From a virus, in IMG/VR virus record IMGVR_UViG_3300036985_009306, positions 32,001 to 96,000 of that record: a stretch of 64,000 nucleotides of DNA; one strand, written 5' to 3'. The notes below the pieces were generated by a model. The model saw nothing but the letters and a program-made list of their open reading frames with translations. It made no database searches and had not been told where the DNA came from. The position numbers and the translations under genes were made by a program. Below are positions 4,584 to 39,848 of this stretch, piece after piece (the first letter of the stretch is position 1; every line of letters starts with the position of its first letter).

Positions 4584-5210
4584 ATGGCGAATGGAGTTTA
4601 TAAAATAACAGAAGATTTTGAAGAAGCATTATCTAAATATACTTGTTCTCCTTATGTAGTTGTGCTTGATAATATGAGTAATGCTTTATTTCTTTCATTG
4701 TATTATGAGAATATAAGAGGAAAAACCATAACTATTCCTAATAGAACTTATCCATCTGTTCCTTGTGAAATTATACATGCAGGAGGGAAAGTTAATTTTA
4801 GACATGTAGAAGGAAAAACTTTAAAAGGAGCATATTCATTGGAAGGGTCTAAAACTTGGGATAGTGCATTAAGATTCACATACAATATGTACATTCCAAA
4901 AACATTTATGTGTATAAGTTTTACAGGTCCTTATAAACATTTGAAACTTAGCAAGGGAGGTGCAATATTGACTGATGATTATATTGCATATTTATGGTTT
5001 AAAAGAGCTAGATATTCTGGCAGAAGAGAATGTTCATACCATGATGATAACTTAGATATGTTAGGATGGAACTTTTATATGATGCCTGAATTAGCTGCAA
5101 GAGGGTTGTTATTAATGAATCAGTTTTACTTAGGTGAAACACCTAAAGTTAATGAAGATCTTGAATTGCCATATCCAGATTTGTCTAAATTTGTTATCTA
5201 TCAACAATAG
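4584..5210 (+). CDS. Short DegT/DnrJ/EryC1/StrS-family PLP aminotransferase-like protein
   Basis: FEEALSKY...NALFLSL, WDSA, SFTGPYKHL (Schiff-base Lys), GGAILTDD, GWNFYM..LAARGL. Confidence 0.75.
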   Translation: MANGVYKITEDFEEALSKYTCSPYVVVLDNMSNALFLSLYYENIRGKTITIPNRTYPSVPCEIIHAGGKVNFRHVEGKTLKGAYSLEGSKTWDSALRFTYNMYIPKTFMCISFTGPYKHLKLSKGGAILTDDYIAYLWFKRARYSGRRECSYHDDNLDMLGWNFYMMPELAARGLLLMNQFYLGETPKVNEDLELPYPDLSKFVIYQQ

Positions 5211-5213
5211 CAT

Positions 5214-6488
5214 ATGAAAAATGTTTTAGTATTTCCTTGTGGTTCTGAAATTGGACTTGAAGTAAATCGTGCATTAACTAATTCAACACATTTTACTTTA
5301 TTTGGAGGAAATAGTGTCAATGATCACGGAAAATATGTTTATAGAAATTATATTGCAGATCTTCCTGACATTGAAGAAAAAAATTTTATAGAAGAAATTA
5401 ACAGAGTTATAGATGAATTCAAGATTGATTTTATTATACCTTCTCATGATTCTGTAATCTTAAAAATGGCTCAAAACCAACAAAATATCAAAGCAACAAT
5501 AATTACGTCATGTGTAGAAACATGTGAAGTTTGTAGATCAAAAGCAAAGACTTATAAATTATTTGAAAAAAATATTGAAACACCCAAAGTTTATTCTTTA
5601 AAAGAAGAAATCAAATTTCCTGTTTTTTTAAAACCTGATGTGGGACAAGGAACAAAAGGGACATATAAAGCAAATAAAAAAGAAGAAATAGATTTTTATT
5701 TAAAGAAAGATTCTACATTACTTATATTAGAATATTTATCTGGGAAAGAATATACAGTTGATTGTTTTACTAATAAAAATGGAAGATTATTATTTGCTAC
5801 TGGAAGAGAAAGAATAAGAATTAATAATGGTATAAGTGTAAATTCTAAAGAATTATTTGATAATAGGTTTCAAGAAATTGCAACAATTATAAATAATACA
5901 TTGTCTTTTCAAGGTTCTTGGTTTTATCAAGTTAAAGAAAGATCTACTGATGAGCTTGTTTTAATGGAAATTGCTCCCAGAATTGCTGGAACATCTGCAT
6001 TATTTAGAGTAAAAGGAGTCAATTTTGTACAATTAAGTTTGTTTGATAAGATGGGTGTTGATGTAAGTATTTTATGCAATAATTTTGATGCTGAAATAGA
6101 TCGTGCTTTATTTTCAAGATTTTCTTCAAATGTTTGTTATGATTATGTGTATATAGATTTTGATGATACGATTATTGTAAATAATTTAGTGAATACTGAC
6201 ATTATGAAATTTCTTTATCAATCTAAAAATAATGGGAAAAAAATAGTTTTACTTTCAAAGCATAAACAAGACATCAAACAGAGTCTAAGTAATTTTTCAA
6301 TCAGTGATTTATTATTTGATGAAATAATCATTTTGAAGGATGATGAGAATAAATATGAACATATTACTGAATTAAGCTCTATATTCATTGATGATTCATT
6401 TTCTGAAAGAAAAACAATATACGACAAATTTCATATACCAGTTTTTGGATTAGATAGTATTGAATTTTTATTGCTTTGGAAAGTTTGA
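5214..6488 (+). CDS. ATP-grasp protein with C-terminal HAD-like domain
   Basis: FPVFLKPDVGQG, EYLSGKEYTVD, MEIAPRIAG; C-terminal YIDFDDTII and IFIDDS. Confidence 0.8.
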   Translation: MKNVLVFPCGSEIGLEVNRALTNSTHFTLFGGNSVNDHGKYVYRNYIADLPDIEEKNFIEEINRVIDEFKIDFIIPSHDSVILKMAQNQQNIKATIITSCVETCEVCRSKAKTYKLFEKNIETPKVYSLKEEIKFPVFLKPDVGQGTKGTYKANKKEEIDFYLKKDSTLLILEYLSGKEYTVDCFTNKNGRLLFATGRERIRINNGISVNSKELFDNRFQEIATIINNTLSFQGSWFYQVKERSTDELVLMEIAPRIAGTSALFRVKGVNFVQLSLFDKMGVDVSILCNNFDAEIDRALFSRFSSNVCYDYVYIDFDDTIIVNNLVNTDIMKFLYQSKNNGKKIVLLSKHKQDIKQSLSNFSISDLLFDEIIILKDDENKYEHITELSSIFIDDSFSERKTIYDKFHIPVFGLDSIEFLLLWKV

Positions 6489-24357: not shown

Positions 24358-27087
24358 ATGGGACCCTTCGTTGGATATAGCCCTCCTGCAACATACACGC
24401 AATCATCGTTACAGTCGGGTATAGCAGGAATTCTAGCAAATTTGCGTATTCCTGCACTTATAGGAACTGCTGATGAAATACAGCAAGTCAATGGTTATGA
24501 ACTTTTTAGAGGTTCAAGTGCCACACAAGACAACAAAAAAGTAGGGGAAGATTTATCTGCTCAGGCTGATGGTACGAATAGAATGTTTCAAGTTATAAAT
24601 TACCCTATTGTTGTAGGTGATGGTCTTGGAAGAGTTACAACTAATACTAATGATGTGGAAGTCATTGTCAACAGTGTAAAAGTAATTGTTGCAAAAGTTG
24701 ACGGATTAAATGGAAAAATATATCTTGCATTAGCTCCTCATCTTCATGATGTTGTAACTGTAACTTATTTTTATAAGAAAACAGACACAAGAATTGTTGA
24801 TGAAGATCTCAGTGATCAGATTGATGGAACAACTACAACATTTTTCACTCATCACTTGCCCATTGTTGATGGTACAAATGCAGGAAGACCTACAACAACA
24901 ATTGAAAATATTGTTGTTAAGATAAATGGAGCAATAGTAACTAATGATGTTTCCCATCTTGATGGTCTGAATGGAAACTTCACAATGTCTTCTCCTCCTA
25001 CTATAGGTCAAATTATCAAAGTCACATATTATTTCAATATGTGGGCTAATACTTATGATGATCTTCCTTATCCAGGTGAAACTCAGATGATTAGAGTTGG
25101 TGTTTCTCCTGAGACATCCAATTTCATTGAGAATATTGACTATATAATTATAGGTGATCAAATTAACTGGGGAACTGGTTACAAATTGGTCCCTGTAGTT
25201 CATACTACTGGTAGTGAATTTTTTGAAGACCAGATTGTTGGAACTTTGATTGATGATAGAATCTATAATGAAGATGTTTCAAGTCAATTTGTGACATCCG
25301 GTGTGACTTCATTGTCTGTTTTGCATCTACCTATTGTAGATGGTACTGGAAATGATATTATCACATATGATCCATCACACGTTATAGTAACAATTGGTGG
25401 TCCGTATGTACCGTCAGGAACATATACAGAACTTGATGTAAATAGAGTTGATGGAGAGACAGGAATAGTTTATTTGCAAACTGCTCCTGCAGCTCACAGC
25501 CAGATATTTGTTACATACTGGTATTCAAGAGTTACTGATGACACATATGCATTAGAAGTAGTGGTACCAGGTGTGACAGGAGTTGGAACATATACAATAA
25601 CATCAACTTATACAGGAGCTGAGATAGGAAATGCAACTCCTGATACAGTTTGGAATAGTTCACATTCAGCAGTGACTCCTACTTGGTTGTCGGGCCCTAT
25701 GGTTTCTAGAGGTCATACTATTGATGAAACAGTAACTTTGACTTTTACATCAAGTACTCAGTTTACTGTGACATCAACTGTAGTAGGAGGTTCAAGTGGA
25801 GTAGGTGTTACAGGAACAACCTATATTGATTCAACAACACAACTCATTTTTACTTTAAAACCGGATAGTTATGTTATTGCTAATTCACTTAAGATAGATA
25901 TAGTAGAAAATGCTACATTTTTGACAAGTGTTATACCTATATTAAGTGTAGGAGGAATGCAGTTAACTGTTAATAACACAACAGATATTACTACAGGTGA
26001 CATAACTGATATGATTGTGTTTGATAAGTCGGGTGAACAACCTAATGTTGGTGATAACTATTATGTGTCTTATTTTTATGAAAAGACAGATTATGAATGT
26101 GCTTTTTATAGCAAGTTTACTGACATTACAAACAATTTTGGTAATCTTGGTGCTTCGAATAATCTAGTTTTGGCTTCTTATCTGATGTTCTTGAATGGGG
26201 CACCTGCTCTTATTCTTTGTCAGGCTAAGAAAGCTTCAGGAAGTGAACTTGCACCTGATCAGACATATTTTGATATTTTGACAAGGCTTCAAAATGATGT
26301 TAATGGCATTAATCCTGATGTGATTGTACCTCTTACAACATCACAGGCGGTTATTAATGCAGTTTCAATTCATTGTTCAACCATGTCTTCAAAGAGAAAT
26401 AGAAGAGAGAGAATTGGTTTCTTTGGATATGCAGTTGGAACTGAACCAATGGATGCTGCAAGTTATGCTCAGACTCTTTATAATCAGAGAATGATTGGTC
26501 TTTATCCTGATGGTGCTGTCGTAGAATTAGTAGCATCGGATGGCACGGTGAATGACAATGTGATTGATGGTTCTTTCTTAGCTGCAGCTCTTGCTGGTTT
26601 GAATGTTAATCCAGTATATGATGTGGCTACTCCGATGACTAAAAAGACGCTTATTGGGTTTACTCAACTTGTACGCTCTCTGGATGAATCAACTATGGAC
26701 ATGGTTGCTACAAGAGGTCTGACTCTTATCCAGAATATTCGGTCCTCATTTGTAGTTAGACATGCTTTGACAACAAACATGGATTCTACTCTTACAAGAG
26801 AAGTGATGGTGATTACAATTATAGATTTCATTCAAGAGCAAAGTCGCATCGTCATTGATCCTTTTATTGGTCGTAAGATGACACCTAATATGCCAGGTCA
26901 GATTTCTGCTACTCTTGGCTCAATGTTGGCTTCAGCAAAAGATTCTCAGATTATTACAGATTATAAAGGGATAGCATCTGTAAGAGATCCAAGACAGCCT
27001 GATCTGATTAATGTGACAGCATTCTTTATTCCTATGTTTGGTTTAAATTGGGTTTCAGTTTCATACCAAGTACAAGTAAGTTTTTAA
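24358..27087 (+). CDS. Contractile tail sheath protein with inserted surface domains
   Basis: N-terminal Y.PP..YT, C-terminal ERIGFFG...AAALAG...RHALTT...I.DFIQE...FIGRK...DLINVTAFFIP sheath signature; precedes the tube gene. Confidence 0.9.
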   Translation: MGPFVGYSPPATYTQSSLQSGIAGILANLRIPALIGTADEIQQVNGYELFRGSSATQDNKKVGEDLSAQADGTNRMFQVINYPIVVGDGLGRVTTNTNDVEVIVNSVKVIVAKVDGLNGKIYLALAPHLHDVVTVTYFYKKTDTRIVDEDLSDQIDGTTTTFFTHHLPIVDGTNAGRPTTTIENIVVKINGAIVTNDVSHLDGLNGNFTMSSPPTIGQIIKVTYYFNMWANTYDDLPYPGETQMIRVGVSPETSNFIENIDYIIIGDQINWGTGYKLVPVVHTTGSEFFEDQIVGTLIDDRIYNEDVSSQFVTSGVTSLSVLHLPIVDGTGNDIITYDPSHVIVTIGGPYVPSGTYTELDVNRVDGETGIVYLQTAPAAHSQIFVTYWYSRVTDDTYALEVVVPGVTGVGTYTITSTYTGAEIGNATPDTVWNSSHSAVTPTWLSGPMVSRGHTIDETVTLTFTSSTQFTVTSTVVGGSSGVGVTGTTYIDSTTQLIFTLKPDSYVIANSLKIDIVENATFLTSVIPILSVGGMQLTVNNTTDITTGDITDMIVFDKSGEQPNVGDNYYVSYFYEKTDYECAFYSKFTDITNNFGNLGASNNLVLASYLMFLNGAPALILCQAKKASGSELAPDQTYFDILTRLQNDVNGINPDVIVPLTTSQAVINAVSIHCSTMSSKRNRRERIGFFGYAVGTEPMDAASYAQTLYNQRMIGLYPDGAVVELVASDGTVNDNVIDGSFLAAALAGLNVNPVYDVATPMTKKTLIGFTQLVRSLDESTMDMVATRGLTLIQNIRSSFVVRHALTTNMDSTLTREVMVITIIDFIQEQSRIVIDPFIGRKMTPNMPGQISATLGSMLASAKDSQIITDYKGIASVRDPRQPDLINVTAFFIPMFGLNWVSVSYQVQVSF

Positions 27088-27179: not shown

Positions 27180-27788
27180 ATGGCTCAGGCATATGTCTAT
27201 CGTGAGGGCGTATCCCCAAATACTCGTCTTCTTAATCCTCAAAGAGTGCGAGTGTTTAGCACTGATGCAGAGGATGGTTATCAGCAAATAGGTCTTATTC
27301 AGACTTGGAATCCGTCTGATACAAGAGCTGTTGAAGCAGTACGTGGAATTGGTTTTGGTGACCAGATTGCAGAACTTGCTGTTGGTGTCACAGATCTTAC
27401 TGCTACAGCAACAGTTATGATGATGTACTTGAGAGATATTCAACAGTTGTTCGGTTACAAAGCAGGTAGTTCAGGATTTGTTCGTTCATTAAAACACCAT
27501 CAGTGGCCGTTTGATGTTTATGAGACAATTCTGATCCCTGATTATATTTCAGGTCAAGCAAAGGGTGGTGCAACTGTTGATAGTGGCAGTATTGTTGTAA
27601 AAACTTGGTACGAAGGTTGCTGGATGTCAGATTTTGCAAAAACATTTGACATTGGTGCTACTTCGGTTACTCAAGATATGACATGTCAGATATCTGATGT
27701 TTATGGTGGAGATAGTAGAACAACAGATACATCAGATTTCTATGCAAGCAATCAGAATTCTATGAGAGGTGCTGGTACTGCTGTATAA
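27180..27788 (+). CDS. Tail tube protein
   Basis: Follows the sheath; IGLIQTWNPSDTR...RGIG.GD...E..G, WPFDV, YEGCWMSD pattern; AAAGGAG SD. Confidence 0.8.
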   Translation: MAQAYVYREGVSPNTRLLNPQRVRVFSTDAEDGYQQIGLIQTWNPSDTRAVEAVRGIGFGDQIAELAVGVTDLTATATVMMMYLRDIQQLFGYKAGSSGFVRSLKHHQWPFDVYETILIPDYISGQAKGGATVDSGSIVVKTWYEGCWMSDFAKTFDIGATSVTQDMTCQISDVYGGDSRTTDTSDFYASNQNSMRGAGTAV

Positions 27789-27932: not shown

Positions 27933-29336
27933 ATGTCTTCTACTAGAGTTGTCAACAAAAATGATTTAGAGATTCTTTCAAGTTTAGTTTTTGACTCATA
28001 TATCTCTAAAGAATTAGAATTTCAGGGATATTATTTTGTGATTAGAACTTTGACTCCAGAAGAAAGAGAAGACATTTCTAGAAAACACAAACATCTCTCA
28101 GAAAAACATAACATTTATTTGGTTTTAGAGATTCTTTCTAACTCAATCATGTTCATAAATGGGTATGAATTCAAAAAAGATCAACATGCATTTTTATTGA
28201 ACAGATTGAATTCAAGATTGATTTTACTTCTTTATAAGTTTTATCAAAAATTAGATGAAGAAACAATAGAATCTTCAAAATTTATTGATTATTATATTGA
28301 AACTAGAGAATCAAGAAATCTATGGACTATTTTTAAGAGATGTAGTAGAATAACAGAGCCTTTTTCTATTAGAAAAATTAATCAATATAGATATTATTGG
28401 ATAGTGATGAATAGTTTTAAAGATTCATTTGAAGAAGAGAAGAAGGCATGGTCTAAAGTAGAGTATATGACTAATTCTATTTGCGCATTTACTAATCCAA
28501 AAGCATTTAGAAAGTCAAGAGGACAAATGGGAATTGTAGATCAATTAGAGAGAAATGAAGATAAATCAAAACAACTTATTGTAGAACAATTAGAAGGTGG
28601 TACAAGTGAAGTTAGAGATAATGACATTTTTTCGACATTAGAAAGATTACCAGGTGAAGAGAGAGATGAACATGAAGCACGTTTGAATATAATGATGGAG
28701 AAAACTTTAAAAGGTGAGTTAGTTGATGATTATGACAGAATAGTTAGACAGGATGAGATTAAGTTGTTTAAGAAGTATTTAAGAGATGAAAGAAAGAAAA
28801 TTTTAGTAAACAGAGAAATATTAAAGCAAAAAGGTGAAGAATTTGATAATTCTGAAGTTTTAACTAACTCAACAAGTAGAAGTAAAAAAATTGAAGAAGA
28901 TAAAAAGAAGGGTTTCTTTTATGAGGATTATAGTTATTTAGAGATTGTAAACATGAAGGATTTTAAAGCAATACCTAAGAAAGAGAAAGAAGTTGCTTTT
29001 GATGAAGTTATGCTTGAGCCAATAGACATTAAGAAAGAGGTAGAGAATTTTTTAAAATGTTTATCGAAACCATCTAGTGTTAATGAGAATGTTCAGGAAC
29101 CTGTTACTATGGTTGATAAAAAAGATGAAACTACGCAATTAGAGTCTGACTCGAGTGGAATTTTGAGGACACCAGCAGAGAGAGCATCTAAAATGAATGT
29201 TGATGTAAAAGGTGTGGATTTGATGAAACAGAGACAGAATAAAGTTGATAGAATTAATAGTACAATGAACCAAAGACGACAAACAATAGAACCTGAAGAG
29301 GGACTTGATGTTATAAAGTTTGGAGATATTAAATAA
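27933..29336 (+). CDS. Tail assembly chaperone-like protein with long charged C-terminal extension
   Basis: Between tube and tape measure; N-terminal IRTLTPEE...SIMFING...LLYKFY is similar to ORF 29592. Confidence 0.55.
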   Translation: MSSTRVVNKNDLEILSSLVFDSYISKELEFQGYYFVIRTLTPEEREDISRKHKHLSEKHNIYLVLEILSNSIMFINGYEFKKDQHAFLLNRLNSRLILLLYKFYQKLDEETIESSKFIDYYIETRESRNLWTIFKRCSRITEPFSIRKINQYRYYWIVMNSFKDSFEEEKKAWSKVEYMTNSICAFTNPKAFRKSRGQMGIVDQLERNEDKSKQLIVEQLEGGTSEVRDNDIFSTLERLPGEERDEHEARLNIMMEKTLKGELVDDYDRIVRQDEIKLFKKYLRDERKKILVNREILKQKGEEFDNSEVLTNSTSRSKKIEEDKKKGFFYEDYSYLEIVNMKDFKAIPKKEKEVAFDEVMLEPIDIKKEVENFLKCLSKPSSVNENVQEPVTMVDKKDETTQLESDSSGILRTPAERASKMNVDVKGVDLMKQRQNKVDRINSTMNQRRQTIEPEEGLDVIKFGDIK

Positions 29337-30007: not shown

Positions 30008-33000
30008 ATGGCCACTACTTCTAAGGAATATGTAAGTAAGCTTCAAATTCAGTCTAATATTGAAGAGGCTTTGGAGAATTTCCAGAAGCTATATATTAAG
30101 TTTTCTGAGATGCCTAAAGCTGTTGAGGGTTTTAATAAAGCTCTCAAGAAGAGTGAGGGATTGGAAAAAGTTTATTATGACATGATGACAGCTATACATA
30201 AGACTACTAAGAGAGTGTCTGAGTTGTCAAAAGTGGTGGCATTGCCTAAAAAACAGTTAGAGGGTATTTCAGATGTTGTGACTATGCTTGAAAGTGCTAT
30301 GAAGGGTTTTTCTGCTAAGGATTTTCTTGATCCTACTGTGATAAAAGATGCTAAGAATACTTTAGATGGAGCTGTTTTGAGTTTGAAAGAGCTTGAAGCT
30401 ACTAATCAAAAAGCTGTTGATAATTTTGATAAGCAAAGTATGCTTCTTAAAGATATTTCAAAACTTGAAGGAGTGATTGAAAGTAATTCAGATAGATATA
30501 GAGATTCAACAAGAGCTGTTTTAGGTACATATGGGAGCATTGTAGGTAAAGTAAAGACAATTAAGGATATGTTGAAGGAAGCTGAAACTGAAGGGCTTAG
30601 TGCAAGATCTATAGAGACTATAGAGAAAAAAATAAGAGAAGTTAAAAAAGATACTATTGGTCTTAATAATCTGACTGAAAATTATTCCAGAAAACTTGCT
30701 GATGTAGATAAATTTTTGAAAGATTCAGCTACTGTTGCAAAGGATTTTACTAATGAAACAGCAAAGGCAAATTTTGATAATGTCGTAAAACGGGCAGAAG
30801 AATTAAAAAGAAAATTAGAGGATTTAAAAAAGACAGGCGTAAAAGAAAGTTTTGAAGGATCAGAAGAAGAATTAAAAAAGATAAATGAAGATGCTAATAA
30901 AACAGTAGATTTCATGCTACAAATAAAGAAATTAGAGGATCAATCTGTTGCAGGTATGGTGAAAAAAGCAAAACTTGAACATGAAGCAAATAAAGCCTAC
31001 ATAAAGCAAACGATGAAGAGAGGTGGAATTGGCGGTGTTGTTGATACTTTTTCAGCGGTCAAAAAAGCTATACCTACTGCCGCAGTGGCAAAGTTTGGTG
31101 AAACTGGTGTAGTTGCTATGAAGGGGATTACTACAGCTGCAACATCTTTAATGTCTATGTTTGCACCTTTAGCTATGTTTGGTGGTGTGTTAGCTGCTGT
31201 TAGTGGTATGTTTGAATTGGAAAAAAAGGTTAAAGCTGCAAGAAAACAGATGTTTATGATGGCAGCCGATTCTAATTTAGCAGGTAAAGGGATAGCTGAA
31301 GTGGATTCTACTGTAGGTGATATGTCAAAGAGATTAGATAGTTTTAATTTAGTAGGGTTGGGAATAAATTTTGAAAAGGCAACAGAAGCAGCACAAGGTT
31401 TTGTGAGGGAGGGTTTTAAAGCACAAGATGTTGTAAATGATTTGACAAGTTCAACAGGTGGCATGTTTGCTGAAGCTGTTTCTTTGGGTATGAGTATAGA
31501 AGAATTGACTGGGAGAGCAGGAGAATTGAGAAAGCAGTTTGGATTAAGTCTTAGTGGAATAGATGATGCTTTTGAGACATTGAGAAAAAGTGCAAAGAAT
31601 GCAGGAATTAACATTTCTATATTTTTTGATAAGGTTATTAATGCAGCTACTGGTTTAGCTTTGTGGGGTAAAAAAGTAGGTGATGTGAGTGTAGTTTATT
31701 CGAAACTTTTTAAAGCAATGAAGTTGCCAGAAGCAATAGGAACTGAGCTTGCTGCAAAAATGGTTAAAAGTTTTAGTGATATGTCGACAGAGATGCAGAT
31801 AGTTACATATCAGCAGGGTGGTGGAGCAAAAAGATACAAAAAACAATCAGAAGAACGTCTGGCATTAATTGATGCTGAAATTGATGCAGCAAGAAAGCAG
31901 AAAGATTTTGCAAAAGCTGATCAATTAGAAATGGAAAAAAGTCAGTATAAAGAACAAGAAAAAAAGGGCGGAAAAGATCTATCTGCTCAGATGCAACGTT
32001 CGAGGTTATTGAATGTAGGAAATCAGATAGGATCTATGATGCAATTAGCTGGGAGTAAATTTGTGGTTGATTTTGATCAAAATGTGGAAGATCTCAGTAA
32101 AAAAATGAGTGATCAACAATATTCGATGGAAAAATTAAGTGAAATAATGAATTGGGATAGAGAAATGACTGAAGGTATGACAAGAGCTTTACGAAATGTG
32201 AAGTTAACTATTGATAAACTTAATGCAGCTGCTCAAGGTATCGAGGGTAATACTGATGAAAATAAACGATTAGATGCAATTATTGATATTACAGGTGGTT
32301 CACAAAGAATAGCTGTTTATGCAAAAAGACTTTCAAAAAATACAAATAAGTTAGACAAAGCAGCATTAAAAGAGCTTGTAACTCAGTTCCCATTTTTAGC
32401 AGGTAAGATTGAAGAGGGTGAGATTAATTATGATAAGTTAGAAAAAGCTGTTAATGATGGTATAGGAACTCCTGAACAAAAATCTAAAGAAATTTTTAAT
32501 GATTTGTCAAAAATGTCTAAAAAACAGTTAGATGTTTTTGCCAAAGGTCTTGAGAGTATTCCTGGTTTAAGTGATGATCAAAGGAAAGCTTTGGCAATAG
32601 CAGAAGAAAACTCTAATTTACAAGAAAAGCAACAACAAATAGCTAATATTCTTTCTAAAGTAAATACAAGTTCTGATTTCTGGGGTAAGGCACAAGCCGA
32701 TATTGCTACAAAAGTTGAAGCTGATAAGCAAAAAGAGATCGGTGCCGAGACATTAAGGCAAACAAAATCAACTAAACAAGCAATAGAGGATGCAATTGGA
32801 ACAATACTTAGAGATGGATTTAGATGGCTTGAAAAATTGTATGGAGCTTTTGTACATGCATTTCCTTGGACAGGTGTAGTCACTGATGCTGCCACTGCAG
32901 AAGAAAATGCAAACAAACAAACTACAGAAATTAAAGGTCAAGCTGCAGGTATGATAGATAAGCCAGGAAGTAAAGCACGATCAAAAGAATTTCTAACAGA

Positions 33001-33538
33001 TAAATTAAATGAACTTCAAGATGCATATGATGAAAAATTAAAAGAATATCACAAACAAAAAACAATAAGTGATTTTGTACCTCTTGCTGATTTTGGATCA
33101 AAAAAAGCAGGTGCAAAATGGAATGAGTTACATGCTCTTGAGATAGCCATTGCTAATTTACAAAATGCATTAAATGAAATTCCAACAGAGGGCTCTACAG
33201 CTCCTCTAGTGGGCTCTAGAGCTCCATCTACAATATTGGATAAGTTAAAAGAAAAAAAGGCAAAAGGTGGTGTGGTAGGAGGTACTAGTTTTTCGGGAGA
33301 CAAAGTTCTTGCTGCACTTAATTCAGGGGAACTAGTTATACCTAAAGAGATATGGCAAAATGCTATTCCTGGATATGCTAGAGGTGGAATAACTCCTGAT
33401 GCAGGTATGGGAACAACAGGCTCTATGTCAAGTAAAACTATAAATGATAATAGAGTAATAAATTTGTATGTAAATCAAAATGACAGAAAACAAATTGAAC
33501 AAATAGTTTTGAATGCGATCTATACAGATAAAATGTAA
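30008..33538 (+). CDS. Tail tape measure protein
   Basis: 1176 aa, helical and A/K/E-rich, with a central hydrophobic segment (LMSMFAPLAMFGGVLAAVSGMF) and C-terminal AKGGVV...DKVLAALNSGELVIP motif; canonical position. Confidence 0.85.
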   Translation: MATTSKEYVSKLQIQSNIEEALENFQKLYIKFSEMPKAVEGFNKALKKSEGLEKVYYDMMTAIHKTTKRVSELSKVVALPKKQLEGISDVVTMLESAMKGFSAKDFLDPTVIKDAKNTLDGAVLSLKELEATNQKAVDNFDKQSMLLKDISKLEGVIESNSDRYRDSTRAVLGTYGSIVGKVKTIKDMLKEAETEGLSARSIETIEKKIREVKKDTIGLNNLTENYSRKLADVDKFLKDSATVAKDFTNETAKANFDNVVKRAEELKRKLEDLKKTGVKESFEGSEEELKKINEDANKTVDFMLQIKKLEDQSVAGMVKKAKLEHEANKAYIKQTMKRGGIGGVVDTFSAVKKAIPTAAVAKFGETGVVAMKGITTAATSLMSMFAPLAMFGGVLAAVSGMFELEKKVKAARKQMFMMAADSNLAGKGIAEVDSTVGDMSKRLDSFNLVGLGINFEKATEAAQGFVREGFKAQDVVNDLTSSTGGMFAEAVSLGMSIEELTGRAGELRKQFGLSLSGIDDAFETLRKSAKNAGINISIFFDKVINAATGLALWGKKVGDVSVVYSKLFKAMKLPEAIGTELAAKMVKSFSDMSTEMQIVTYQQGGGAKRYKKQSEERLALIDAEIDAARKQKDFAKADQLEMEKSQYKEQEKKGGKDLSAQMQRSRLLNVGNQIGSMMQLAGSKFVVDFDQNVEDLSKKMSDQQYSMEKLSEIMNWDREMTEGMTRALRNVKLTIDKLNAAAQGIEGNTDENKRLDAIIDITGGSQRIAVYAKRLSKNTNKLDKAALKELVTQFPFLAGKIEEGEINYDKLEKAVNDGIGTPEQKSKEIFNDLSKMSKKQLDVFAKGLESIPGLSDDQRKALAIAEENSNLQEKQQQIANILSKVNTSSDFWGKAQADIATKVEADKQKEIGAETLRQTKSTKQAIEDAIGTILRDGFRWLEKLYGAFVHAFPWTGVVTDAATAEENANKQTTEIKGQAAGMIDKPGSKARSKEFLTDKLNELQDAYDEKLKEYHKQKTISDFVPLADFGSKKAGAKWNELHALEIAIANLQNALNEIPTEGSTAPLVGSRAPSTILDKLKEKKAKGGVVGGTSFSGDKVLAALNSGELVIPKEIWQNAIPGYARGGITPDAGMGTTGSMSSKTINDNRVINLYVNQNDRKQIEQIVLNAIYTDKM

Positions 33539-33570
33539 TTTTTTATAGTTTTTATAAAAAGAGTTTTATC

Positions 33571-33795
33571 ATGAAAAATATTTCTAAATTAGCTGAACAG
33601 ATTGTTTCAAAAACATTGACAAATTTACCTTCAATTAAGGTTGATTTTAGTACTGTTAAGAAAAAAATAGAAAAACTTGAAAAAGGGATTTCTACATTTA
33701 ATGGAGATGATTCTTCTTGGGAAACCATTGAAAACTGGAAACCATTAGCTGAAGAAATAATTCAAGATTTAGAAAGCATAATGGAGAAATTATAA
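33571..33795 (+). CDS. Small hypothetical protein
   Basis: 74 aa; its stop overlaps the next start (TAATG). Confidence 0.55.
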   Translation: MKNISKLAEQIVSKTLTNLPSIKVDFSTVKKKIEKLEKGISTFNGDDSSWETIENWKPLAEEIIQDLESIMEKL

Positions 33796-35171
33796 TGCAT
33801 AAATATTCTGACAATTGTCCGTTCTGCAAAATTTTTAAAGCAGATGACAAAGATAAATCTAGTTATGATAAAGAAGTACATCCAAATAATAAAAAATTTT
33901 GGAAATCTTTACCGAGCAACTCAGAACATGCTCTTGGTCGTCATCCTGTTTTTACATTAAGTGGTGAAGAGCTTGATAGAGCTTCATACAAACATACTAA
34001 AGATTTATCTGAAAAACACAAAGTAAAAGATGAAGAATTAGGCATGCTATTCCAACAAATGATAAAAAAAGAACATGCTCATAAGAAAAAACTTGAAGAA
34101 CTTGCTGTAAGTGCTGTAGCAAAAATGATGAAAGTAGACAAGAGTGAACTTGTGGCAAAACTTACTAATGAAGTTGATATTAATGAAACTGAGCCTCTTA
34201 AACCAGAAGAAATGAAAGCCTTGCCAAAGAATCTTCTTGATGAAGCAAATAAACGTATAACGAGTAATGCATTTGCACAGGGCGCATCTGTGCATGCTTA
34301 TCTAACTGCACATTTTTTTGAAGAAATACAAGATGAGATAAAGAAGATAGACCCTAAACTTGTAGATATTTATTCTAAAATTACCACAGGTTCACATAAG
34401 TTATATTGGAAACTAGATATGTCGGTTATGGGTTTGGGAAATGCTGCTGTGGGATCTGTTAGACCAAAGCAAGATAATGATGGTGATATCAAAATGGAAG
34501 CAAAAGCACCAGTGTTTATTGTTTTAGTGCAAGAACTTGTTAAAGGAGTTTTAGAATTAAAGTATTTAAAACATTTGCAACAAAAATCATCAGAGGAACT
34601 TAGTGACGATGATATTAAAAAGATATTTCAATATGCAGATAAAATTGAAGATGAGCCAAGATTGATTCAAATTGGTCCTGAGTTATGGAGGAGATTTTTG
34701 AAAGTTCTTAATAGTTCTAAAGTTAAAGGCTCTAAGTCTCCTGTAGAAGTTTATGAGCATTTGATGAAGCTTCCACCTAAAGATTTGCATAAGTTTGTTC
34801 AATTAGTAGTAGATGAGCCTGATAAAGCTCCACATGAACTCGAGTTATTACTTGAAGATGATAATAAAGTCGATCTTGAGCAATTATTAAAAGAGCTAGA
34901 GAATCCAGAAGATATAAAATTTTCTGCTGCAGGACCAATGACAGCACCGATGCCAGTTAAAACTCCAACACCTACAAAGCAGCCTTATGAAGTTCCAGGG
35001 AAAAACCCAAGAGTAATTCCATTACCACAACCTAAGAATACAGCTCCTGTTAAGACACCTGTTAAAACACCTGTTAAAACTCCAGCACCAGCAAAAGAAG
35101 TTCCTGGGCAGAAACCTCGTGTTATTCCTTTACCACAGCCCAAAAATGATTTTATTAAAAAATCAAAATAA
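33795..35171 (+). CDS. Hypothetical protein with MHKYSDNCPFCK leader and Pro-rich repetitive tail
   Basis: ORF track; C-terminal VKTP and EVPG..PRVIPLPQPKN repeats. Confidence 0.8.
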   Translation: MHKYSDNCPFCKIFKADDKDKSSYDKEVHPNNKKFWKSLPSNSEHALGRHPVFTLSGEELDRASYKHTKDLSEKHKVKDEELGMLFQQMIKKEHAHKKKLEELAVSAVAKMMKVDKSELVAKLTNEVDINETEPLKPEEMKALPKNLLDEANKRITSNAFAQGASVHAYLTAHFFEEIQDEIKKIDPKLVDIYSKITTGSHKLYWKLDMSVMGLGNAAVGSVRPKQDNDGDIKMEAKAPVFIVLVQELVKGVLELKYLKHLQQKSSEELSDDDIKKIFQYADKIEDEPRLIQIGPELWRRFLKVLNSSKVKGSKSPVEVYEHLMKLPPKDLHKFVQLVVDEPDKAPHELELLLEDDNKVDLEQLLKELENPEDIKFSAAGPMTAPMPVKTPTPTKQPYEVPGKNPRVIPLPQPKNTAPVKTPVKTPVKTPAPAKEVPGQKPRVIPLPQPKNDFIKKSK

Positions 35172-35173
35172 TT

Positions 35174-35821
35174 ATGCATAAATATTCTGAAAATTGTCCA
35201 TTTTGTAAGATTTCTGGTATAGATATGTTTGAATTAACTCCAGAAGAGAAAATAGAACTAGAAGAAATTGATAGAGAATTGGTAAAAGAAATAGATGAAA
35301 GAAAAGATAAGTCAAGAAAATTAAGAAAAGAAAACCAAGAGATATTAAAAAAACAAAAAGAAATTTTATTGACACAAGGCATTGCATTAACTGCTGAAAA
35401 CAAAACTGACCATAAAATTAATAGTATTTATAGTTTTTCAATAGATTTAAAAAGCCCATTTGCAATAGAGATTTCTTATTTTAGAAGAATATATAATGTT
35501 GCGCATTATGATGAAATAAAAAGAGAATTTTTAGACAAATTAAATTTTAAAATGTTAGATGAATATGAGTATCTTGATACAAAAGCAAGATCTCAATGTA
35601 GACATGCTGAAATGATTAATGTAAGTTTTTTAAAAACTTGTAGAAAATTAGGTGAATTTTTAAAAAGATTTTTTAAAACCAAACAAGATACAAGATATAA
35701 GATTTATGAAGTACACATTCTTGATACAAGACTTGGTATGGTAAAAGAATATGTAAGTTTTGTTGAGCAAATAGAAAAGATTTTGGAAAAAATAAAACAG
35801 GACAAAAAACAAAATGCATAA
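35174..35821 (+). CDS. Leader-family paralog (MHKYSENCPFCK)
   Basis: Shares the leader, FELTPEEK and FLDKL..KMLDEYEYLD blocks with neighbours. Confidence 0.75.
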   Translation: MHKYSENCPFCKISGIDMFELTPEEKIELEEIDRELVKEIDERKDKSRKLRKENQEILKKQKEILLTQGIALTAENKTDHKINSIYSFSIDLKSPFAIEISYFRRIYNVAHYDEIKREFLDKLNFKMLDEYEYLDTKARSQCRHAEMINVSFLKTCRKLGEFLKRFFKTKQDTRYKIYEVHILDTRLGMVKEYVSFVEQIEKILEKIKQDKKQNA

Positions 35822-36758
35822 ATATTCAGATAATTGTTTGTTATGTAAAGTGTATTCAAATATTGACACTTTTGAACTTACATCTGAAGATAAAGTCAAG
35901 TTAAAAGAAGCACTTAATGATCTTAAAAAACAAGAAGATGATGTATTAGAAGTATGGAAAAAAATTAAAAAACAAAATGATGAAGATTTGAAAAAAATGG
36001 AAGAGATTTTGTCTAAAGTAACTAAAAGAATTCCAGAAACAAGAGCAACTTATTTTGATGTTAAGTATTTTTATGAGAAACCTTCAAAAGAAGTTTTAGA
36101 CAAGTTAGAACCTAAAATGCTAGATGAATATGATCATCTTGATACAAGAACTGAAGCTCAAGTAAAAAAGATAAGCAAAACTGATCTTTTTAAAACAATG
36201 AATTTAGAAAAAATTAAAGATTTTTTAAAAGATTTATTTAAAACAAAAATTACTGTAACAAGAGATCAGCTACATAATGTAGAAAGTTTGAATTTTAAAC
36301 ATAAAGGCAGACTTTATAAAGTTTTTTTAACAGAAACAATTTTTGTAAAGTCCTGGATTGATTTTAAAACTTCGTTAAAAGATGAAGATGATGTTTTAGA
36401 TCAAATAGAAGAAATTTTAAAAACTATTAGATCAAGAGAAAAGGTTAAGACTCATTATGATATTTTTAAAGATCTTAAGTTTACAGAAATTATAAACAAA
36501 TATGATTTAAAAGTTGATAAGAAAAAAGAAGGAACTTTCATTTTAAGAATAAATGAGCGTTCAGGTGAAAGAATAACCCTATCAGATACAGGTAGATTAA
36601 GGTATTATAGAGATAAGTATGATGAATATGCAAGACTTCTTATGACTCTTACAAGAAGTGATGAAGAAAATTTTACAAAAAAAATGTATTATGAGTTTTT
36701 AGATAAAATTGATTCTTTTCTTACGAAACAAAAAAAGAACAAAGAAAAAACAAAATGA
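35814..36758 (+). CDS. Leader-family paralog (MHKYSDNCLLCK)
   Basis: As above, plus KYDLKV..K..G.F.L...E..GE...S.TG.LRYY shared with 36755. Confidence 0.75.
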   Translation: MHKYSDNCLLCKVYSNIDTFELTSEDKVKLKEALNDLKKQEDDVLEVWKKIKKQNDEDLKKMEEILSKVTKRIPETRATYFDVKYFYEKPSKEVLDKLEPKMLDEYDHLDTRTEAQVKKISKTDLFKTMNLEKIKDFLKDLFKTKITVTRDQLHNVESLNFKHKGRLYKVFLTETIFVKSWIDFKTSLKDEDDVLDQIEEILKTIRSREKVKTHYDIFKDLKFTEIINKYDLKVDKKKEGTFILRINERSGERITLSDTGRLRYYRDKYDEYARLLMTLTRSDEENFTKKMYYEFLDKIDSFLTKQKKNKEKTK

Positions 36759-37672
36759 ACATACTTAATTTTGTTTTAAGAGAAAGCAAACCTTATATGC
36801 ATAAATATTCTGACAATTGTCCATTTTGTAAGATTTACTCAGGATTAGACACATTTGAACTTACACCAGAAGAGAAATCAAAATTATTAGAAATTGATAA
36901 AGATTTTAAAAAACAAGATGAAGAATATGTTTCTGTTATAGATAAATATAAAATTTCTAATGATGAAGATTTAAAAAGAATAAAAGAAATTTTGTTAGAA
37001 GTTACTGATAATTTACCTAAAATTGATTATTTAGTCACTTTAGGTAAAGATGGCAAGATAGAATATATTAATGAAGAGCTTAAAAAAGAAGTTTTAGATA
37101 AATTAGATCCTAAAAAACTTGAAGAATATGAATATCTTGATGCAAGAACCAGATCTAGATATAAAAAAGCTAAAGACATAACAATTGATTTTTCAAAAAC
37201 AATTAATTTTTTAAAAATTGTAAGCAAACTTGAATCATTTTTAAAAGATGATCTTAAGTTAAAAATTAATAAAAGTTTTGACAATTTTATTTATGATTAT
37301 GGAAATAAAACATATCATATATTTTTGGGTTTTAAACAAGATATTTATCAACAAGTGGAAAAAAATCTTAAGACTATGAAGAAAAAAAATGAAAAAAAGG
37401 TTACTAATAAAATTGTTGATGACCCTAAATTTAAACAAATTGTTGAAAAATATGATTTAAAAGTTCATTTTAAAACCAAGGGTGGATTTACTTTGACTGT
37501 AGATGAAGGAACGGGTGAAAAATATGATGTTTCAAGTACTGGAAATTTAAGATATTATAATGACAGATACTCTCAAGGAAGTCTTATTCTTAGTTCAAAT
37601 GACAATATTAAGATTTTAGATAAAATTGATGAAAATATAACTAAGAGAAGAAAAAAAATGGAGAAGAAATGA
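36755..37672 (+). CDS. Leader-family paralog carrying both MNILNFVLRE and MHKYSDNCPFCK (second Met at 36797)
   Basis: Read directly from the translation. Confidence 0.75.
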   Translation: MNILNFVLRESKPYMHKYSDNCPFCKIYSGLDTFELTPEEKSKLLEIDKDFKKQDEEYVSVIDKYKISNDEDLKRIKEILLEVTDNLPKIDYLVTLGKDGKIEYINEELKKEVLDKLDPKKLEEYEYLDARTRSRYKKAKDITIDFSKTINFLKIVSKLESFLKDDLKLKINKSFDNFIYDYGNKTYHIFLGFKQDIYQQVEKNLKTMKKKNEKKVTNKIVDDPKFKQIVEKYDLKVHFKTKGGFTLTVDEGTGEKYDVSSTGNLRYYNDRYSQGSLILSSNDNIKILDKIDENITKRRKKMEKK

Positions 37673-39021
37673 ATATACTTAATTTTGTCTTAAGAGAAGC
37701 ACATATTGAGAAATGGGCGCTGTTGCAACAGCAACAGTTAGACAATATGGTGCATCAAGTTTTTGCTAAATATAAAGAAAAATTGATAAACAAAAAACCT
37801 GATGACACGTATTTTCTACATCATTCTTATACAGATTATGTTAAAGAATTAAAGAAGCCTTATTTTGAATATGCTAAAAAGTTTAATGAACATGTAGTTA
37901 AGAAGTTAACAATTGATTTTAAAAACGAAAAATTGCTTTTAATTTGGTTATTAGAACAAGTTGTCACAAACCAAATAAAAGCTGTTTCAATTGATGAAGA
38001 TGTTGATGTAATTAAAAACAATTTACATCTTTATTTTGAAAATAAAGGAAAAATTCATAAAAACATATTTGATTCTACATATAATGACCTTAAAAAATGG
38101 GTTGTACCTTATCAACCTAAAGGTGAAGAAAGCAAGCATAAAAAATTTTTAAGCAAACCTTATATTGAGGGAAAAGAATACAAAATTTATAAAATAACAA
38201 AAGTTGATGAGTGTGTAAAGATAAGCAAAGGAACATCATGGTGTACTCAAGGCATAGCAAATGCTGAGTCTTATCTTAAAAAAGGTCCATTGTGGTTAGT
38301 GACAAAAAATGATAAAAGATTTGCTTTGATAAGTTTTGAGTCTGGTTCTTACATGGATGTTAATGATCAGAGGCTAAAACCTGAAGTTGTATTTGAAATT
38401 TTTGATATTTGGCCAGAAGCTGAAAAGAAATTGATTGAAAATTTGAAGGGTAATAGTTATTCAATAAAGTTTTTAAGAAATCTAAGTGAAGAACAACAAC
38501 TTGAGATGATGCCAAAGGAACCTGATGTTTTTCAACATTTATATAAACCAACTGAAAAAGTAATAAATAAAGCTGTTAAAGAAGATGGTTCTAATATTCA
38601 ATATGTCAAGAATCCTTCAAAAGAACTTCAAGAAGAAGCAATTAAGCAAGATGCAGATAACATTGAAAGAATAGATCATATAGATCCTGAAATTGAAAAA
38701 AGACTTATAGATATTAATCCAGATGCAATAAAACATATGAAAAATCCTTCTGAGGAAACTCAAGAAAAAGTTGTCAGGTTACATGGATTAGCAATTAAAC
38801 ATATCAAAGATCCATCTGAAAAGGTTAAATTATTAGCTGTAAAACAAAATGGTAAAGCAATTAGACATTTAAAAGATCCTTCTGTTGAAGTTCAAATGGC
38901 AGCTGTTAATAATAAATGGCATTCTCTTGCTTATATTAAAAATCCAGATAAAAAAGTAATAGAAAGAGCAATAGAGATTGATCCAAGAGCTGAAGAATTT
39001 GTTGACATGAAAGCAATTTAA
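37669..39021 (+). CDS. MNILNFVLRE-leader protein with WCT-motif domain and DUF4116-like helical repeats
   Basis: GTSWCTQG...YLKKGPLW...MDVND, followed by about 6 A(V/I)K.(D/N)G..I..(I/V)K(N/D)PS repeats. Confidence 0.7.
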   Translation: MNILNFVLREAHIEKWALLQQQQLDNMVHQVFAKYKEKLINKKPDDTYFLHHSYTDYVKELKKPYFEYAKKFNEHVVKKLTIDFKNEKLLLIWLLEQVVTNQIKAVSIDEDVDVIKNNLHLYFENKGKIHKNIFDSTYNDLKKWVVPYQPKGEESKHKKFLSKPYIEGKEYKIYKITKVDECVKISKGTSWCTQGIANAESYLKKGPLWLVTKNDKRFALISFESGSYMDVNDQRLKPEVVFEIFDIWPEAEKKLIENLKGNSYSIKFLRNLSEEQQLEMMPKEPDVFQHLYKPTEKVINKAVKEDGSNIQYVKNPSKELQEEAIKQDADNIERIDHIDPEIEKRLIDINPDAIKHMKNPSEETQEKVVRLHGLAIKHIKDPSEKVKLLAVKQNGKAIRHLKDPSVEVQMAAVNNKWHSLAYIKNPDKKVIERAIEIDPRAEEFVDMKAI

Positions 39022-39023
39022 TT

Positions 39024-39206
39024 ATGCATAAATATTCAGACAATTGTTTACTTTGTAAGATATATTCAAGTGCTAATACATTTGAATTAACTCCAGAAGA
39101 AAAAATAGAGTTAGAAGAAAGTGATAAAGAATTAGAAAAAGAAATAACAGAAAGAAAAAATAAATTAACAAAATCTGAATTAAAAGAACTTCTTCAAATA
39201 GAATAA
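39024..39206 (+). pseudogene. Truncated leader-family paralog (60 aa)
   Basis: Contains only the leader and the FELTPEEKIELEE.DKEL block nearly identical to 35174, then stops. Confidence 0.55.
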
Positions 39207-39220
39207 ATTCTATTTTTATC

Positions 39221-39285
39221 AAGACTACATCTTCAAGATGCTCATAGACCTGGTAGTCAAGGGAGAGCATCTCAAATTCCTCTTT
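39221..39285. ncRNA. Candidate pseudoknot RNA motif, copy A
   Basis: GACTAC(39223-28)/GTAGTC(39253-58) crossed by AGATGCTC(39236-43)/GAGCATCT(39265-72). Confidence 0.6.
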
Positions 39286-39317
39286 ATTTCTAAAAAATTT
39301 ATAAAAAGTAATAAGTC

Positions 39318-39848
39318 ATGGCCACAACAGCTGTACAAAGTCCAGTACCCATTTCCTGGAGCATTAAAGGAGCTGCAAATGTTCCTCCTTTAACAATGCT
39401 TATTAACCCAGCAAATTTAGACATAACTTATACTCCCTTAATCACAGAAACTAGAACTCTTGGCGGTTTTGTCCATGAATACTGGGGTGAACAATTAACT
39501 TCTCTTTCAGCCTCAGGAAAAACTGCAATGTTTATAGATAGAACTCAAGGTCTAACAAATGATACAAGATCTACAGAATCATATCAATACTTCATGTCTT
39601 TATTAAATATCTATAAAAACAATGGGAAAGGATACACTACAGATTTTTCTACAGATACAATTCCTGCTTTTAGAGCAAATCCTACAAAAATAGCAAGTCT
39701 TGGTATTGTATCTATGGTATTTGACAAAAGACACTATGATGGTTACTTTGAATCTTTTTCATATACAGAAGAAGCTGCAATGCCATTTAATCTTGACTAC
39801 AATTTTGTATTTAGAGCAATGCGAATTATAGGACAATTAACTGTTTGA
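39318..39848 (+). CDS. Tail tube initiator/baseplate-tube junction-like protein 1
   Basis: MLINPANLDITY...WGEQLTSLSASGKT...Y.GYFESFSYTE.A..PF; position before the hub gene. Confidence 0.6.
   Translation: MATTAVQSPVPISWSIKGAANVPPLTMLINPANLDITYTPLITETRTLGGFVHEYWGEQLTSLSASGKTAMFIDRTQGLTNDTRSTESYQYFMSLLNIYKNNGKGYTTDFSTDTIPAFRANPTKIASLGIVSMVFDKRHYDGYFESFSYTEEAAMPFNLDYNFVFRAMRIIGQLTV

Follow-up and report, generated by a model that had tools for sequence, protein, structure and literature searches.

We describe a short N-terminal peptide, here called the leader, that is shared by otherwise dissimilar proteins encoded on a 64,000-nt stretch of phage DNA (the window; bases 32001-96000 of the 192,143-bp IMG/VR record IMGVR_UViG_3300036985_009306). 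The leader comprises about 13 residues with the consensus M-H-K/R-Y/H-S-D/E-N-C-x-(F/I/L)-C-K/N-I/V and, as judged by BLASTP, heads at least seven unrelated types of protein body. It occurs in about 24 genes from several uncultured phage lineages and is very probably a portable tag that is maintained at the level of the peptide. Our overall explanation, which we put forward tentatively, is that a small clade of uncultured jumbo phages uses it as an N-terminal handle on changing accessory proteins. The source phage is itself uncultured. Its record (31% G+C, estimated to be 97% complete) derives from a sediment metagenome. Among sequencing runs, the window sequence was listed in a single DNA run, which is probably the source sample, and in no RNA run.

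Leader copies in the source genome

An exact pattern search of the window located ATGCATAAATATTC at positions 33795, 35174, 35814, 36797, and 39024, all on the plus strand, and found no further exact copy. These are the five starts listed in a preliminary description of the window. With up to two mismatches allowed, nine matches were obtained, compared with 2.4 ± 1.5 in shuffled sequences. Each of the five copies continues in frame as M-H-K-Y-S-D/E-N-C-x-x-C-K. The copy at 36797 is exact, as described, but it lies inside a longer open reading frame (ORF) that begins at 36755.

The search of the remaining genome and of related phages that the preliminary description had called for yielded two additional leader genes outside the window, which brings the genome to seven copies, and about 24 genes in all. 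The copy at genome position 104133 (L006:1501-2136, genome 104133-104768) heads a protein of 211 amino acids (aa) with a body termed C. The copy at genome position 24551 heads a B-type protein of 207 aa, reads M-H-K-H-S-N-N-C, and has a strong Shine-Dalgarno sequence. All but one of the seven copies carry Tyr at position 4; His occupies this position in about half of all known copies, and in all three leaders of each of the metagenome loci L015 and L023. Position 12 is variable (K/N/D).

In the public gene call (P0046), the 314-aa B gene with the leader at 35814-35852 starts at a GTG located 12 codons later. The resulting 302-aa product omits the leader, and automatic annotation thus hides part of the tag family.

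The leader precedes unrelated bodies

Bodies were grouped by BLASTP clustering after residue 14, which gave six groups. The bodies of L034 and L036 were added later, and B and B' were joined. The seven types are A, B (including B'), C, a 129-aa type (L016), a pentapeptide-repeat type (L018/L022), a 136-aa type (L034), and a 171-aa type (L036). Alignments of A with B (458-aa versus 314-aa protein) and of C with A were limited to the first 14 residues, which confirms the earlier statement that at least two unrelated bodies carry the leader. The preliminary description had also considered that the leader might occur only in recent duplicates of one gene. With at least seven BLASTP-unrelated bodies in several lineages, this does not hold.

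Selection acts on the peptide

A comparison of synonymous and non-synonymous change within the leader had likewise been suggested. As first described, the copies differ largely in a synonymous manner (TCT/TCA, GAC/GAT/GAA, TGT/TGC, AAA/AAG, CCA/CCG). Codons vary synonymously over all copies (CAT/CAC, AAA/AAG, TAT/TAC, TCT/TCA, TGT/TGC), and M1, H2, S5, C8, and C11 are unchanged in every one of them. NG86 estimates for codons 2-13 amounted to a pS of 0.59 and a pN of 0.10 for the six own copies then known, and to a pS of 0.80 and a pN of 0.17 for 19 copies. Since synonymous change far exceeds non-synonymous change, we conclude that the leader is under purifying selection at the amino-acid level. 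In an alignment of the B family (mean identity 25%), the invariant columns are M1, H2, K3, S5, C8, C11, and one Glu only. As a caveat, L016-L028 were collected from JGI metagenome contigs with a peptide-derived degenerate DNA pattern that fixes several residues, so that their pN is biased low at the fixed positions and conservation there is inflated. The own copies, L013, L015, and the proteins of the P-series were found without a residue-fixing DNA pattern; the homologues of body A were collected by body and not by leader.

The preliminary description had offered, as an alternative, that an invariant 14-bp DNA core is the functional site. This core is identical in six of the seven own copies, the seventh reading ATGCATAAACATTC. 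Codon bias yields the core with P = 0.43 per copy, and its invariance therefore needs no special explanation. The same codons vary synonymously among relatives while the amino acids are fixed. Moreover, both Cys residues are invariant although the 14-nt core does not include their codons. A role of the nucleic acid as the primary function is thus largely refuted.

N-terminal position and recombination at gene starts

In 13 of the 14 true database clusters, the match to the leader profile starts at residue 1; the exception is the 305-aa ORF of the source phage itself. An in-frame stop codon is found within a few codons upstream of many leader copies. In AlphaFold2 (AF2) models of bodies A and B, the leader stays outside the folded part. 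Together with the unrelated bodies, the occurrence in other lineages, and the purifying selection, these observations bear out the idea of a portable peptide tag.

Genes carrying the leader duplicate, truncate, and recombine at their 5' ends. The first 10 codons of the 36755 ORF (36755-36784) copy the start of the 37669 gene (37669-37698; 32 nt, 94% identical) and are followed by four codons and then the leader. This prefix looks like a duplication scar, as expected from a tandem duplication unit running from inside a B gene to just inside the gene for a protein with DUF4116 repeats. The stub at 39024 shares about 84% DNA identity with the 35174 copy. At genome position 24551, a 133-nt direct repeat brackets the leader gene (24504-24637 and 25199-25334; L035:4504-4637 and 5199-5334). 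The two repeat copies are identical but for 16 bp comprising the Shine-Dalgarno sequence, the ATG, and the CAT, which are exactly reverse-complemented in the downstream copy, killing the start there. Either a small inversion took place here or the assembly is at fault. With its position at the edges of partial duplications, leader DNA behaves as a recombination substrate as a side effect. The pattern fits an exchange of cassettes through homology between their common 5' ends, which would be a consequence, not the purpose, of the tag.

The first 10-15 residues of the DUF4116 family represent a second short N-terminal peptide that is grafted onto other bodies (36755 ORF and body-A homologue P0005).

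Occurrence in other phages

A profile of the first 30 residues was run against 1.84 billion representative proteins. It gave 17 matches at E ≤ 0.001, about 14 of which were true; the true ones all came from uncultured phage-like contigs. With about 14 clusters among 1.84 billion representatives, the leader motif is rare. Exact and degenerate leader DNA patterns had no matches in IMG/VR viral contigs beyond the record of the source phage. A looser DNA pattern detected one copy in a 424-kb relative (G001), with Arg in place of Lys3. This 171-aa gene is the single leader gene of that record and belongs to a co-oriented run (L036:332-2737) in the order trypsin-like serine protease (GDSG motif; Pfam matches just under threshold), 59-aa ORF, leader gene, and YhhN-family membrane protein. 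Of the genomes of this clade, G000 and G001 thus carry leader genes, and G003, which is 91% complete, carries none. Among the 14 loci of the metagenome scan, L019, L020, L029, L021, L024, and L026 were chance or internal matches and were dropped.

The NCBI metagenome contig L015 holds a similar cassette in a different neighbourhood, including three genes with leaders. It comprises a B'-type gene, an A-type gene, a split-off Pro-rich ORF, a homologue of the 74-aa protein of the source phage, a B-type gene, and a DUF4116 protein gene. At L034:971-1381, a 136-aa leader gene is located between a tail tube homologue (82% identical to the product of window 27180-27788) and a homologue of window 27933-29336. 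Here, a leader gene has entered the tail module for a second time and independently.

Properties of the tagged bodies

Body A was modelled with an overall predicted local distance difference test (pLDDT) score of 79.8. Residues 21-356 are all-helical with values above 90, the leader remains below 50, and the C-terminal tail is disordered and Pro-rich with two P-Q-P-K-N repeats. With the body A model, Foldseek returned no PDB match at E ≤ 0.001 and one uncharacterised phage protein only in BFVD; the ESM Atlas gave no match above 0.77. VIA-align of body A (33855-34862) listed a run of zincin/gluzincin chains (DUF885, M32, M3, MATCAP) at Z scores of 3.8-5.5, which are too low to be meaningful for helical proteins. 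No H-E-x-x-H motif was seen in body A, whose nearly invariant His residues are H50, H167, H173, and H332.

We found 45 homologues of body A, which differ in their N-termini. P0002, P0003, P0004, and P0007 carry the leader, and P0008 has a decayed version with both Cys residues replaced. P0005 (three Logan contigs) has the first 15 residues of the DUF4116 gene family in place of the leader; P0009-P0012 have neither the leader nor a DUF4116-type start. In distant homologues, another N-terminal helix is followed by a Pro-rich P-Q-P-K-N segment. The position of this segment, P-x-x-(I/L)-P-Q-P-K-N, varies: it is C-terminal in body A of the source phage (residues 374-458), a separate small ORF in L015:6639-6917 and L028:3805-4212, and N-terminal in the distant homologues (P0013-P0034). 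From its distribution in the sequences, it looks like a mobile short linear motif.

The AF2 model of the 314-aa B protein (pLDDT 79.2; leader residues 1-17 below 50) has a long helix after the leader (residues 24-67), followed by a mixed domain and a small beta domain. Its matches were generic helical hairpins and, for the C-terminal domain, Rv3902c and PsiB with Z scores of about 6-6.8, which are too weak to use. Body C contains a hydrophobic segment of 20-25 residues (about 62-85), which is probably membrane-spanning. It retains the leader and the upstream epimerase gene in another sample (L033, 77% identical); the body C homologue in L015 has no leader. Homologues of three body types lack the leader or show a decayed one; the leader can disappear while the body is retained. 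The proteins of L018:830-1630 (minus strand) and L022:1169-2092 (plus strand) are tagged pentapeptide-repeat proteins, matching PF00805 above the gathering score (E = 1e-20 and 1e-21). In this test, which covered the L018/L022 cargo only, tandem A(D/N)LXX repeats were present. The pentapeptide-repeat family includes known DNA mimics.

Possible metal binding by the leader

Every copy offers His2, Cys8, and Cys11, and about half have His4 as well, which makes metal binding a reasonable assumption. The leader Cys pair also represents the sole Cys residues of A and of two of the three full-length B copies. We give about even chances to the leader binding a metal, most likely zinc. The putative site could be self-contained or a half-site completed by a partner. 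A lone C-x-x-C, even with His, cannot complete a tetrahedral site, and a partner chain may therefore supply the rest. Intermolecular zinc sites built from half-sites are known from the Rad50 zinc hook and the CD4/CD8-Lck zinc clasp. The likeness lies in a half-site that needs a partner chain; these eukaryotic or repair-protein examples differ from the leader in that they are not N-terminal tags and are not portable among unrelated proteins. A co-fold of two copies of B residues 1-75 with Zn, run without controls, gave a score of 0.02, from which no verdict on binding can be drawn in either direction.

When the leader profile was compared with PDB sequences, the best matches were the N-termini of three HIT/HINT proteins (5uvm, 1y23, and 3imi; E = 0.04-0.7). 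A single-sequence check was also run. Both groups have D/E-N-C-x-F-C-K-I-x-x-G near residues 5-15 in common, with the Cys residues at almost equal numbers. The N-terminal C-x-x-C with a hydrophobic x that typifies HINT proteins corresponds to C8-x-(F/I/L)-C11 of the leader. In CaHINT, zinc is bound by Cys7 and Cys10 together with His49 and His104 from elsewhere in the protein (PMC6354057). The leader proteins differ in having no histidine-triad body after the leader; their AF2-modelled bodies are helical or mixed and have unrelated folds. The HIT domain (PF01230) was absent from the whole genome at E ≤ 1 and was detected in 14 of 14 control genomes. Given the weak E values and the lack of a HIT domain in the phage, we regard the similarity as a motif resemblance only and not as HINT membership.

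Rubredoxin knuckles were false positives of the leader profile: a rubredoxin or zinc ribbon needs two C-x-x-C knuckles per chain, and leader proteins have one. Three other assignments were dropped, namely a heme-binding C-x-x-C-K (position 12 varies between K, N, and D), a glutaredoxin active site (no thioredoxin fold follows), and a lipobox (no signal peptide precedes the Cys).

What the tag may do

The mechanism that we tentatively favor, a peptide handle on accessory proteins, would operate as follows. The tagged genes of this phage would be read through within the late tail operon. In the resulting proteins, His2 (with His4 in most relatives), Cys8, and Cys11 would bind a metal, most likely zinc, and, as in a HINT-type motif, two further ligands would come from elsewhere. 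The short hydrophobic stretch after Cys11 may dock the tagged protein onto one shared partner. The tagged proteins would then be loaded into the virion for delivery with the DNA, by the logic of the capsid-targeting sequence (CTS) of phage T4 and the DarB signal of phage P1. Virion loading is our leading candidate for the purpose of the tag, as a possibility and not a probability. A more specific version, which we consider doubtful, is a zinc-clasp address tag that would form a new class of loading signal, in which His and Cys of the tag and ligands of the tail or head share one metal, so that exchangeable counter-defence or takeover effectors are loaded for injection. The candidate effector set would consist of a DNA mimic, a zincin-like enzyme, and a membrane-inserting protein. 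Circumstantial support for virion loading comes from the co-oriented array between tail genes, the L034 insertion in the tail module, and the nature of the cargo, which includes a pentapeptide-repeat protein, a possibly zincin-like protein (Z 4-5.5 only), and a protein with a membrane-type segment.

Several observations weigh against this picture. The leader gene at genome position 104133 lies beside an epimerase and a helicase-like gene, that of L013 is found amid glycosyltransferases on the opposite strand, those of L015 among small unknown genes, and that of L036 near the trypsin-like protease and the YhhN membrane protein. No protease-type cleavage motif is conserved after the tag, as inspected by eye. 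The HINT statistics are weak, and only three candidate ligands are invariant, the fourth, His4, being replaced by Tyr in six of the seven own copies. When 50,697 phage records were searched by tblastn with the 24-residue leader region, no match was obtained at E ≤ 10. Furthermore, the T4 and P1 signals contain no Cys. The prohead protease family S77 (PF03420) had no match in the genome, a result that carries no weight here since the control genomes were likewise without a match.

A first alternative, which we consider unlikely, is that the leader is a zinc-dependent handle for self- or cross-association: a pair of leaders, or one leader and a body, would share a metal and join the tagged proteins into homo- or hetero-oligomers in the infected cell, with no virion targeting. 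One C-x-x-C knuckle is half of a tetrahedral site, the rubredoxin-type matches needing two, and B-type proteins have a long helix directly after the leader. Up to seven tagged proteins are encoded per genome, and each genome keeps to one variant of the tag (here Tyr4, in six of seven). However, it is not obvious why bodies A and C and the pentapeptide type should co-assemble, and a simple Cys4 bridge requires neither the invariant His2 nor the strict N-terminal place.

It is improbable that the leader is a stability or timing signal, that is, a degron at the N-terminus or a switch sensitive to redox state or metal, which a protease or chaperone of the host or phage would read and which would restrict the accessory proteins to a certain period. 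The peptide is strictly N-terminal, disordered, and exposed, homologues without it still fold, and in G001 a trypsin-like protease gene precedes the leader gene by two genes. Leader genes have no protease gene as a constant neighbour, however, and paired Cys residues are not known to be required by bacterial N-degrons or ClpX/Lon tags.

Quite improbable is an inert fossil, the captured 5' end of an ancestral gene (e.g., of the HIT family) that was spread by duplication or fusion and kept as a working start. The resemblance to HINT N-termini and the frequent grafting of gene starts in the cassette (P0005, 36755) would agree with it, but H2, S5, C8, and C11 are invariant at a pS of about 0.6-0.8 across unrelated bodies and several lineages, and the leader visibly decays where it is not needed (P0008). 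Only a very slim chance is left to the conserved element acting as nucleic acid (recombination hot spot, cassette junction, translation-initiation or operator site) with an incidental peptide: the near-identical core and the partial duplicates that end near leaders (39024 stub, 36755 prefix, 133-nt repeat at genome 24551) are set against upstream sequences that are not conserved, including the ribosome-binding region, and against the absence of alternative joints at leaders in the source metagenome, where only colinear contigs were found in what is a weak test.

The accessory block and its flanks

The features of the leader gene array and its surroundings are listed in Table 1. The preliminary description had placed the array between tape measure and baseplate genes. 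In the related loci L007, L009, and L011, the counterpart of the 30008-33538 ORF (1233-1258 aa) and that of 39318-39848 share an ATGA overlap. The two flanking genes thus adjoin directly in these relatives, and 33539-39317 is an accessory insertion peculiar to this phage. The proposed location is confirmed in this sense, both gene names being based on position only. The related loci were collected by means of the 176-aa protein. A PHROG match to a tail sheath was obtained upstream of the block, at 24358-27087. Neither flank ORF matched a Pfam or PHROG family, and the same searches gave no match for A, B, C, the 74-aa protein, and two downstream tail ORFs.

Table 1. Features of the accessory block and its flanking genes (window coordinates)
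Feature	Position	Strand	Remarks
Left flank ORF, 1176 aa	30008..33538	+	"Tape measure" by position and by homology to 1233-1258-aa ORFs of relatives
Accessory block, 5.8 kb	33539..39317	+	Between tape-measure-position gene and first downstream tail gene
74-aa helical protein, no leader	33571..33795	+	Stop overlaps first leader ATG (TAATG)
Body A, 458 aa	33795..35171	+	Leader 33795-33833
Body B copy 1, 215 aa	35174..35821	+	Leader 35174-35212
Body B copy 2, 314 aa	35814..36758	+	Leader 35814-35852
Body B copy 3, 305-aa ORF	36755..37672	+	Leader 36797-36835 at codon 15; 291 aa if started there
DUF4116-repeat protein, 450 aa, no leader	37669..39021	+	
Stub, 60 aa	39024..39206	+	Leader plus 46 codons of a B-type gene
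Right flank, 176-aa conserved tail gene	39318..39848	+	"Baseplate" by position; ~70% identical in six related loci

A scan of the block for promoters and terminators gave no signal above shuffles. Transcription of the tail operon therefore probably continues through the block. The 450-aa protein matched DUF4116 in Pfam (E = 3.5e-9) and PHROGs of unknown function. It is a conserved companion of the cassette, with 50% identity to its counterpart in L015. The L015 homologue of the 74-aa protein (54% identical) also directly precedes a leader gene. A small ORF upstream of the L022 leader gene had no likeness to the 74-aa protein in BLASTP, and the notion that a small chaperone always precedes leader genes was dropped.

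An extra gene of 418 aa or 482 aa is present among the conserved baseplate-region genes at L007:15356-16612 and L009:15306-16754, and none in L011. One of these genes starts with a C-x-x-C-x-x-C cluster. The extra gene may be a homing-endonuclease-like insert.

Comparison with known phage tags

Very few phages (T4 and P1) are known to have shared address tags at protein N-termini; there, such tags explain the delivery of counter-defence proteins ahead of gene expression. Tags of this type have already been turned into protein-delivery tools. In Pfam and PHROGs, we found no match to an internal-protein family and no description of the leader, and our literature search retrieved only the T4 and P1 precedents for a shared tag. 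The leader is short enough to be synthesised, naturally precedes at least seven kinds of cargo, and its putative zinc binding is accessible on the peptide without culture of the phage. If our explanation is true, the tag would give direct access to the proteins that these uncultured jumbo phages inject or assemble. Should it prove to be an oligomerisation or stability module, it would still represent a natural case of a functional 13-residue unit that is shuffled among unrelated genes by recombination at gene starts.

The internal proteins of T4 and T-even phages (IPI, IPII, IPIII, and those of the polymorphic locus) carry a modular, transferable, short N-terminal CTS (PMC3012670); its transferability is ascribed to Mullaney and Black (1996) in a passage of PMC9024508. 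As in T4, one short N-terminal peptide is common to diverse, exchanged accessory proteins in a variable array. The leader bodies, at least seven in number, share residues 1-14 only, and the array recombines: the block is absent from three relatives and contains paralogues, a stub, and grafted starts. The leader shows no sequence likeness to known tags in the tblastn search of phage records. The T4 CTS further differs in having no Cys or His pair and in being cleaved off by the prohead protease; the leader is followed by no evident cleavage motif. In contrast to the T4 loci, leader genes occupy at least three separate loci, of which some are non-structural.

In P1, the N-terminal ~30 residues of DarB suffice to direct a large accessory protein, or a reporter, to the inside of the capsid (PMC9024508). 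The underlying idea, a tag for counter-defence proteins that are to be injected, is alike, but the P1 signal resides on one protein, has no sequence relation to the leader, and contains no metal ligands. Judged from its residues, the leader thus differs in its chemistry from the shared tags of T4 and P1. If it proves to be an address tag, this second, chemically different His/Cys type would widen the concept that those two phages established.

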